The notes under the pieces are model-generated. The model did not search any database, was not told where the DNA came from, and saw only the letters and a list, made by a program, of their open reading frames with translations. From IMG/VR virus record IMGVR_UViG_2724679238_000007, positions 1 to 42,109 of that record: a stretch of 42,109 bases of DNA. One strand, given 5' to 3'. Positions 31,921 through 31,955 of this stretch are shown here, one piece after another (the first letter of the stretch is position 1; each line of letters begins with the position of its first letter). The stretch is from a virus. Its lineage: Duplodnaviria > Heunggongvirae > Uroviricota > Caudoviricetes. The translations under genes were made by a program, and so were the position numbers.

Positions 31921-31955
31921 CTCGTAGAATCTGTTAACAAACTAGATTCTACGAG
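31921..31955 (+). promoter_or_regulatory. perfect 12-bp inverted repeat with an 11-nt spacer that overlaps the RBS of the following gene
   Basis: CTCGTAGAATCT-gttaacaaact-AGATTCTACGAG; the 3' arm contains the GAGG SD for the ATG at 31962. Confidence 0.5.

Follow-up and report, generated by a model that had tools for sequence, protein, structure and literature searches.

An inverted repeat overlapping the late promoter LPsit as a probable translational insulator of the tail operon in P1/P7-like phage-plasmids

Why is the first gene of a phage late operon preceded by a perfect inverted repeat that takes in most of its Shine-Dalgarno (SD) sequence? The repeat lies in a viral DNA window of 42,109 nucleotides (the whole stretch analysed here), in which the region around it is 99-100% identical to P1/P7-like phages (Punavirus); judged by its sequence, the window is a P1/P7-like phage-plasmid. 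An earlier note on this DNA had offered two readings, a very stable RNA hairpin occluding the ribosome-binding site (RBS) or a palindrome bound by a dimeric protein, and had taken either as a sign of specific control at the entry to the operon containing sit. We propose that the repeat probably acts in RNA, folding back so as to protect the late tail operon from transcription arriving from upstream, and that it most likely silences read-through RNA rather than the late mRNA.

The inverted repeat, its surroundings and the embedded promoter

The perfect 12-bp arms and the 11-nt spacer were recovered at 31921-31955, as the earlier note had given them, and the sole plausible SD indeed falls in the 3' arm, with only its last base outside (Table 1). 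Since A31920 and G31956 on the flanks are unpaired, the perfect repeat is exactly 12 bp long; five of its 12 pairs are G-C, and its 3' arm is followed by the 6 nt GTTTCA and then by the start codon. According to 100 first-order Markov simulations of the 42-kb window, a perfect 12-bp inverted repeat with a loop of 3-20 nt is expected by chance 0.03 times per window. Three such loci are present: the hairpin described here, a C1-operator-like pair (3508-3541) and parS (19748-19776). At 3508-3541, ATTGCTCTAATAAAT and ATTTATTAGAGCAAT form a perfect inverted pair of C1-operator-like sequences that resembles a bivalent operator and lies within a stretch, about 1876-3587, where the ORF layout departs from that of P7. 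The repeat at 19748-19776 is a perfect 13-bp inverted repeat (CAAGGTGAAATCG/CGATTTCACCTTG) between parB and LP23, and corresponds, per the P7 annotation, to the ParB boxA repeats of parS. For the hairpin itself no Rfam family matched at the gathering score, the sole overlap being a chance-level hit to mir-10 (20.3 bits vs 47.5, E = 0.18).

Table 1. Features at and around the inverted repeat (window coordinates)
Feature	Position	Strand	Sequence or basis
C4 antisense RNA	30252-30337	-	RF01695, 69.6 bits
Upstream cargo gene, lipoprotein-like (P7 upf50.5)	30817-31338	+	ORF list and P7 annotation
Upstream cargo gene, membrane protein (P7 upf50.0)	31342-31881	+	ORF list and P7 annotation
Lpa-box (-22) region of LPsit	31907-31920	+	GTCACAAATGACAA; annotated 9-bp box at 31912-31920
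5' arm	31921-31932	+	CTCGTAGAATCT; anti-SD strand, present only in RNA begun upstream
LPsit -10 hexamer	31925-31930	+	TAGAAT; P1/P7 annotation; inside the 5' arm
Loop/spacer	31933-31943	+	GTTAACAAACT, 11 nt
Predicted LPsit start	31935-31939	+	In the loop; sigma-70 geometry; A at 31936 and 31937
3' arm	31944-31955	+	AGATTCTACGAG; in the pmgC 5' UTR, bears most of the SD
SD of pmgC	31953-31956	+	GAGG, five bases before the ATG; three of four bases inside the 3' arm
pmgC (tubA in P7)	31962-32528	+	First gene of the late operon; ATG at 31962

Downstream of the repeat, the late operon pmgC-tub-pmgB-sit-pmgA-bplA-16 spans 31962-40154 (seven genes, roughly 8 kb), and its products include tail tube, tape measure and baseplate proteins. 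The N-terminus of PmgC is conserved across 32 homologues. Upstream lie two cargo genes in the same orientation (30817-31881), both small and coding for exported proteins, which are the presumed source of read-through transcripts: the hairpin begins 40 nt past the stop codon of the second of them, and a terminator scan of the + strand gave no terminator-like site from 31881 to 31962. No promoter from which the cargo genes might be transcribed was found in the window, where the sigma-70 scan of the + strand gave no match. Beyond the cargo genes follows the c4-icd-ant immunity region on the opposite strand. Its immI part (30252-30458, - strand) comprises the C4 RNA and the a1/b1 target element of that RNA (RF03163) and is divergent from the cargo genes, and a C1-operator-like sequence is located nearby at about 30521-30536.

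The Lpa-dependent late promoter LPsit is annotated at the position of the hairpin in the GenBank records of both P1 (AF234172) and P7 (AF503408). An alignment of the nine annotated P7 late promoters (LPsit and eight others) gives the consensus ACAAGTGACTT-N4-TAnAAT, of which LPsit, ACAAATGACAA-CTCG-TAGAAT, is a weaker member. A leave-one-out position weight matrix (PWM) built from the other eight promoters nevertheless ranks it 13th of 84,172 positions on both strands, so that annotation and PWM both place the promoter over the repeat, and its position is exactly where the operon needs a promoter. The weakness resides in the box, AAATGACAA, which agrees with AAGTNACTT at five of the eight specified positions (six of eight in P7); the extended ACAA-TGAC core is present, and the TAGAAT hexamer and the 4-nt spacing fit the TANNNT pattern. 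A scan with the late-promoter pattern AAGTNACTT-N4-TANNNT, allowing up to two mismatches, does not list LPsit. A late promoter on the minus strand, which the mirrored TAGAAT in the other arm might suggest, was also considered and rejected: the minus-strand sequence upstream of it is by eye unlike an Lpa box, and the both-strand PWM listed none. The region of the -22 box (31906-31919) is itself a small palindrome, TGTCA-CAAA-TGACA, in the cargo class of the window and in P7; it can form a 5-bp hairpin in read-through RNA and is absent from other cargo classes.

Sigma-70-type promoters start transcription 5-9 nt past the -10 hexamer, and by this geometry the predicted LPsit start falls in the loop. 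As the -10 hexamer of LPsit lies within the 5' arm, late transcripts are therefore predicted to begin in the loop, to lack the 5' arm and to leave the RBS open. The hairpin could then be formed only by read-through RNA, because LPsit transcripts would lack one of its strands.

Folding of read-through and late RNA

The isolated hairpin has a predicted stability of -17.7 kcal/mol (z = -7.4), which none of 200 shuffled sequences equalled, and its SD is paired, bearing out the stable RBS-occluding hairpin foreseen in the earlier note. In read-through RNA (31882-31990; MFE -28.3 kcal/mol, z = -4.6), the GAG of the GAGG SD is paired in both the MFE and the centroid fold, whereas RNA beginning at 31937 is without significant structure (-5.5 kcal/mol, z = 0.04) and leaves the SD unpaired. 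The predicted cost of opening the SD is 12.3 kcal/mol in read-through RNA vs 4.3 kcal/mol in late RNA, and that of opening the 30S footprint 21.4 vs 7.9 kcal/mol. These results are unchanged for any start 5-9 nt past the -10 hexamer, and the same difference in opening cost is seen in P1, in P7 and in four relatives that have diverged (L097, L099, L104 and L107).

We hypothesize that LPsit is built into the element, with its -22 box just upstream, its -10 hexamer within the 5' arm and its start in the loop. RNA made from LPsit late in the lytic cycle, starting at 31935-31939, would carry the 3' arm only, as part of an unstructured leader of about 25 nt, with the SD exposed and pmgC translated. 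RNA entering from the co-oriented cargo genes, with no terminator intervening, would carry both arms and would fold into a hairpin of 12-15 bp that buries the SD and leaves pmgC untranslated. Such untranslated RNA would probably be cut short by Rho-dependent polarity, and the tail genes would remain off outside the late phase. Of the specific control at the entry to the sit operon that had been suggested earlier, the part that stands is a conserved SD-occluding hairpin at the first gene; the late mRNA itself is most likely not throttled, given that the -10 hexamer of LPsit lies inside the 5' arm.

The other P1 late promoters LPs, LPdar, LP23, LPmat, LPpro, LPlyz and LPpac have the box-N4-TAnAAT layout in common with LPsit, but only in LPsit is the -10 hexamer tied to the downstream SD by a long perfect repeat. 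For eight late promoters of P1/P7, the RBS opening energy of read-through vs late RNA was compared with that obtained after shuffling the upstream segment 200 times. LPsit stands out clearly (0 of 200) and LPdar weakly (p about 0.035), and the other six show nothing beyond their shuffled controls. A general anti-SD layout of P1 late promoters was thereby rejected: LPdar, LP23 and LPpac look similar by eye, but the shuffle test singles out LPsit and marginally LPdar. At LPdar (P7 AF503408, 34322-34369, - strand), the predicted start falls within CCUCCU, which is able to pair with the lydA SD AGGAGG in a 6-bp version of the pairing, and opening the RBS costs 4.7 kcal/mol more in read-through than in late RNA. 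At LPpac, an 8-bp pairing of CTTTCGTA with TACGAAAG is not significant (p = 0.16).

Conservation of the pairing and the variable slot upstream

Homologues of PmgC with 41-98% identity were collected, and their loci were taken from genome records, assemblies and IMG/VR; when IMG/VR was scanned further with diverged PmgC sequences, nearly all matches belonged once more to the E. coli group. The conservation in related genomes that the earlier note's reading presupposed was found, in that the arms or their pairing are kept, with compensatory changes, in relatives whose PmgC is as little as 65% identical. In about 85 P1-like loci of E. coli, 11-bp arms, CTCGTAGAATC and GATTCTACGAG, are invariant (11 of the 12 arm bases). 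Only the class of the window has T-A as its 12th pair; most other E. coli loci have G..A at this position together with a different apical helix. In a group from Salmonella, Klebsiella and Enterobacter (PmgC 74-78% identical), the -10 hexamer is TAAAAT, the 3' arm reads AUUUUA and the loop is unrelated. Relative to the TAGAAT of the window, which pairs with AUUCUA, this is a double change from G-C to A-U inside a perfect 13-bp stem (CTCGTAAAATCGG/CCGATTTTACGAG), and the pairing of TAAAAT with AUUUUA is found in loci L097-L108 and in L103. The same double change occurred independently between two Pantoea-type loci, L101 (TAGAAT with UUCUGAG) and L103 (TAAAAT with UUUUGAG), and U·G wobbles are present in L099 and L101. 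Across the relatives, loops of 8-14 nt differ in sequence, and the arm centres are 21-24 bp apart. The spacer motif GTTAAC, to which the earlier note had drawn attention, is not conserved: P7 has GGGTAAC, and the loops of the Salmonella and Klebsiella relatives are unrelated.

A formal count on the alignment gave pairing in 86% of cells, vs 30-44% with a slid partner, a figure that understates the pairing in both Pantoea-type rows because MAFFT mis-registers their shorter arms; these two rows were read by hand and from per-sequence folds. Eight cells carry double changes, a number reached by none of 500 shuffles, and the covariation comprises few independent events. The Pantoea-type loci L101 and L103 have no cargo upstream but a structural gene followed by a terminator, and their hairpins are much weaker (-12.3 and -5.7 kcal/mol). 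In more distant relatives (PmgC 44-61% identical), pmgC mostly comes directly after another structural gene, without a promoter; two of these loci, L011 and L109, possess instead an unlike intergenic region in which a terminator lies upstream and no hairpin can be recognised, and none of the distant relatives is informative about the element. In six loci from Serratia, Pantoea and Buttiauxella (L010, L012-L016), the product of the preceding structural gene ends in ...LRIVYNW.., with neither promoter nor hairpin between that gene and pmgC. Accordingly, both the LPsit module and the slot for cargo look like an insertion peculiar to the P1/P7, Salmonella and Pantoea-alvi lineages.

In about 85 loci (L005-L096), the position upstream of LPsit is occupied by one or another of at least six unrelated cargo sets. 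The cargo is almost always co-oriented with pmgC and usually ends 20-200 nt before the box; examples are the Sim proteins (simABC) of P1, YfjT-like proteins, and upf50.5 and upf50.0 of the window. Most cargo ORFs have hydrophobic, signal-peptide-like N-termini, as judged from the sequence rather than by a predictor, and some P1-like phage-plasmids bear resistance genes. When elements with unlike cargo are compared, their homology sets in again exactly at the -22 box, ACAAATGAC (window 31907-31910). The element and its flanking homology are present in 514 plasmid records of PLSDB, and among the PLSDB matches listed many alignments start at query base 3-6, which corresponds to 31907-31910 of the window. 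The slot matches the published 'variable region 4 (simABC)' of P1-like phage-plasmids (PMC9603915).

Could the hairpin instead be part of the functional late mRNA? LPsit would then be mis-annotated, or the main start would lie further upstream, for instance at a sigma-70 promoter in or after the cargo, and the hairpin would act as a gate opened by a factor, by RNase III or by temperature. The strong masking of the SD and the weak match of the LPsit box to the Lpa consensus are compatible with such a gate, and in the Salmonella-type loci the stem together with an outer extension reaches about 20 bp, the size of an RNase III substrate. In addition, the P1 record predicts three sigma-70 promoters, P1pmgC to P3pmgC, inside and after simC and upstream of the hairpin; their transcripts would include the whole hairpin, and the CRISPRi targets used in P1 would not block them. 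However, relatives retain both the -10 hexamer and the 4 nt that separate it from the box, the hexamer remaining TAnAAT even while it covaries with the 3' arm, and the same module stands behind at least six unrelated upstream sequences, which therefore provide no conserved upstream promoter. Furthermore, the late genes of P1 depend on Lpa (PMC8198154, PMC10695390), and no candidate trans-acting factor is known. Polar CRISPRi (dCas12a) roadblocks in simA, simB and simC did not reduce plating of P1, and pmgC, tub, pmgB and sit are essential in this phage (PMC10695390). It follows that productive transcription begins downstream of the sim segments that were targeted, a pattern that fits transcription from LPsit. 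Taken together, a gate on the late mRNA is improbable.

A second alternative, to which we likewise give little credence, is that the hairpin serves the cargo transcripts as a stabiliser of their 3' end, a processing site or a weak terminator, with occlusion of the SD as a by-product. Stable 3' stem-loops shield mRNAs from exonucleases, and a hairpin that begins 40 nt past the upstream stop codon is suitably placed for this. Yet in every case the 3' arm stops inside the SD or abuts it, an arrangement that the 3' end of a cargo transcript would not call for, and the element travels with the late operon rather than with the cargo, as homology breaks upstream of the -22 box. A role as an intrinsic terminator was rejected: the terminator scan made no call, and the stem is followed by GUUUCAAUG in the window and by GUUGCC or UCACUA in relatives. 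No lineage thus has a U-tract after the stem (GUUUCAAUG, GUUGCCAUG, UCACUAUG), and the hairpin is therefore not an intrinsic terminator.

The other reading put forward in the earlier note, a dimer-binding-type DNA palindrome, found no support. A dimeric regulator bound over the -10 hexamer and start of LPsit could repress or activate transcription; the perfect palindrome does overlap the promoter, and the other two perfect 12-bp repeats of the window, the C1 operator pair and parS, are protein-binding sites. However, neither the window nor 100 kb of P7 contained a further copy of the half-site when searched for it, and no other late promoter has such a palindrome. Moreover, the spacing of the arm centres differs between lineages by up to 3 bp, and the arms change by compensatory and G·U substitutions instead of being conserved as sequence. 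A G·U pair corresponds to an A·C mismatch on the other strand and is meaningless for the recognition of duplex DNA. The G·U pairs and the variable arm spacing therefore speak for RNA of the + strand and against a protein-bound DNA palindrome, a reading that we consider very unlikely. Finally, the complementarity of promoter and RBS might be a coincidence, each arm having a constraint of its own, a -10 region in one and an SD-bearing 5' UTR in the other. This is hardly credible: chance predicts 0.03 such repeats anywhere in a 42-kb window, the compensatory double change arose twice independently at one and the same pair, and the stem persists at 65-100% PmgC identity while the loop diverges.

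Silencing of the tail operon and counterparts in other systems

We therefore return to the fold-back of read-through RNA: on the combined analysis, the element is best interpreted as a T4-like device that probably insulates the late tail operon, at the level of translation, from the variable cargo slot. The genes tub, pmgB and sit have start sites of their own and are not blocked by a block of pmgC translation alone, so that another step would be required to silence the entire operon. The most plausible candidate would be termination by Rho inside pmgC RNA that is not being translated. At the start of pmgC, over 80 nt (31962-32041), C-G amounts to +0.125, vs an operon mean of -0.047 (sd 0.071), and this mild excess of C over G is a weak hint of a putative Rho utilisation site.

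More tentatively, the DNA of the 5' arm may be selected twice, as the -10 hexamer of an activator-dependent late promoter and as the anti-SD strand of an RNA, and the device may make the slot upstream of LPsit safe for an ever-changing cargo that is expressed in the lysogen. If so, the promoter hexamer and the 5' UTR co-evolve because of selection at two levels, which would clearly exemplify how a promoter element and an RNA structure can restrict one another in evolution. An insulator of this kind would explain one known hypervariable region of P1-like phage-plasmids and would provide a mechanistic reason why the exchange of cargo is tolerated upstream of LPsit. It would also show how a temperate phage can keep its tail genes silent while it expresses variable cargo that adjoins them upstream, in the same orientation and with no terminator in between. 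P1 serves as a genetic tool and a classic model phage, and it is the prototype phage-plasmid; if the proposal is correct, insertions upstream of pmgC would need no terminator when P1 is engineered, and the transcriptomes of P1-like elements would have to be interpreted with such silenced read-through in mind.

Late promoters embedded in a hairpin are known from T4 and apparently undescribed for P1: the literature searched (LPsit; pmgC with simC) contained no description of this hairpin, though an earlier mention in the main P1 genome paper is possible. A related principle is fold-back inhibition, which Davis, Simons & Kleckner (1985) and Schulz & Reznikoff (1991) reportedly described as a protection of IS10/Tn10 and IS50 against external promoters. 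As in the element described here, transcripts from outside carry an upstream segment that pairs with the RBS, and transcripts from the element's own promoter lack this segment. Unlike the transposase genes of these insertion sequences, the target at LPsit is a phage structural operon, and there is no sequence relationship.

The closest counterpart is found in T4, where the RBSs of genes e, soc, 49 and I-TevI are sequestered on early or middle read-through RNA and the late promoter is located in the DNA that encodes the hairpin, as has been demonstrated experimentally for gene e and I-TevI (PMC3014915, PMC2988022). In both systems a stem-loop pairs with the SD and the DNA of its 5' strand contains a late promoter, the LPsit case being a prediction. 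In T4, late transcripts that lack the 5' strand are translated, and the longer transcripts from upstream promoters are translationally silent. The two systems differ in their setting. T4 is a virulent phage whose late promoters, with the element TATAAATA, are served by gp55/gp33, whereas the P1-type element belongs to a temperate phage-plasmid that relies on sigma-70 and Lpa (box AAGTNACTT plus -10 hexamer), and the T4 paradigm would thus be extended to a late system dependent on sigma-70 and an activator. Also, the hairpins of T4 silence transcripts of fixed early operons, whereas that of LPsit would silence lysogenic or early cargo transcripts from a highly variable slot. Lastly, the T4 cases have been described for individual genes, while the P1-type target heads a seven-gene operon of about 8 kb, for which the additional polarity step would be required.
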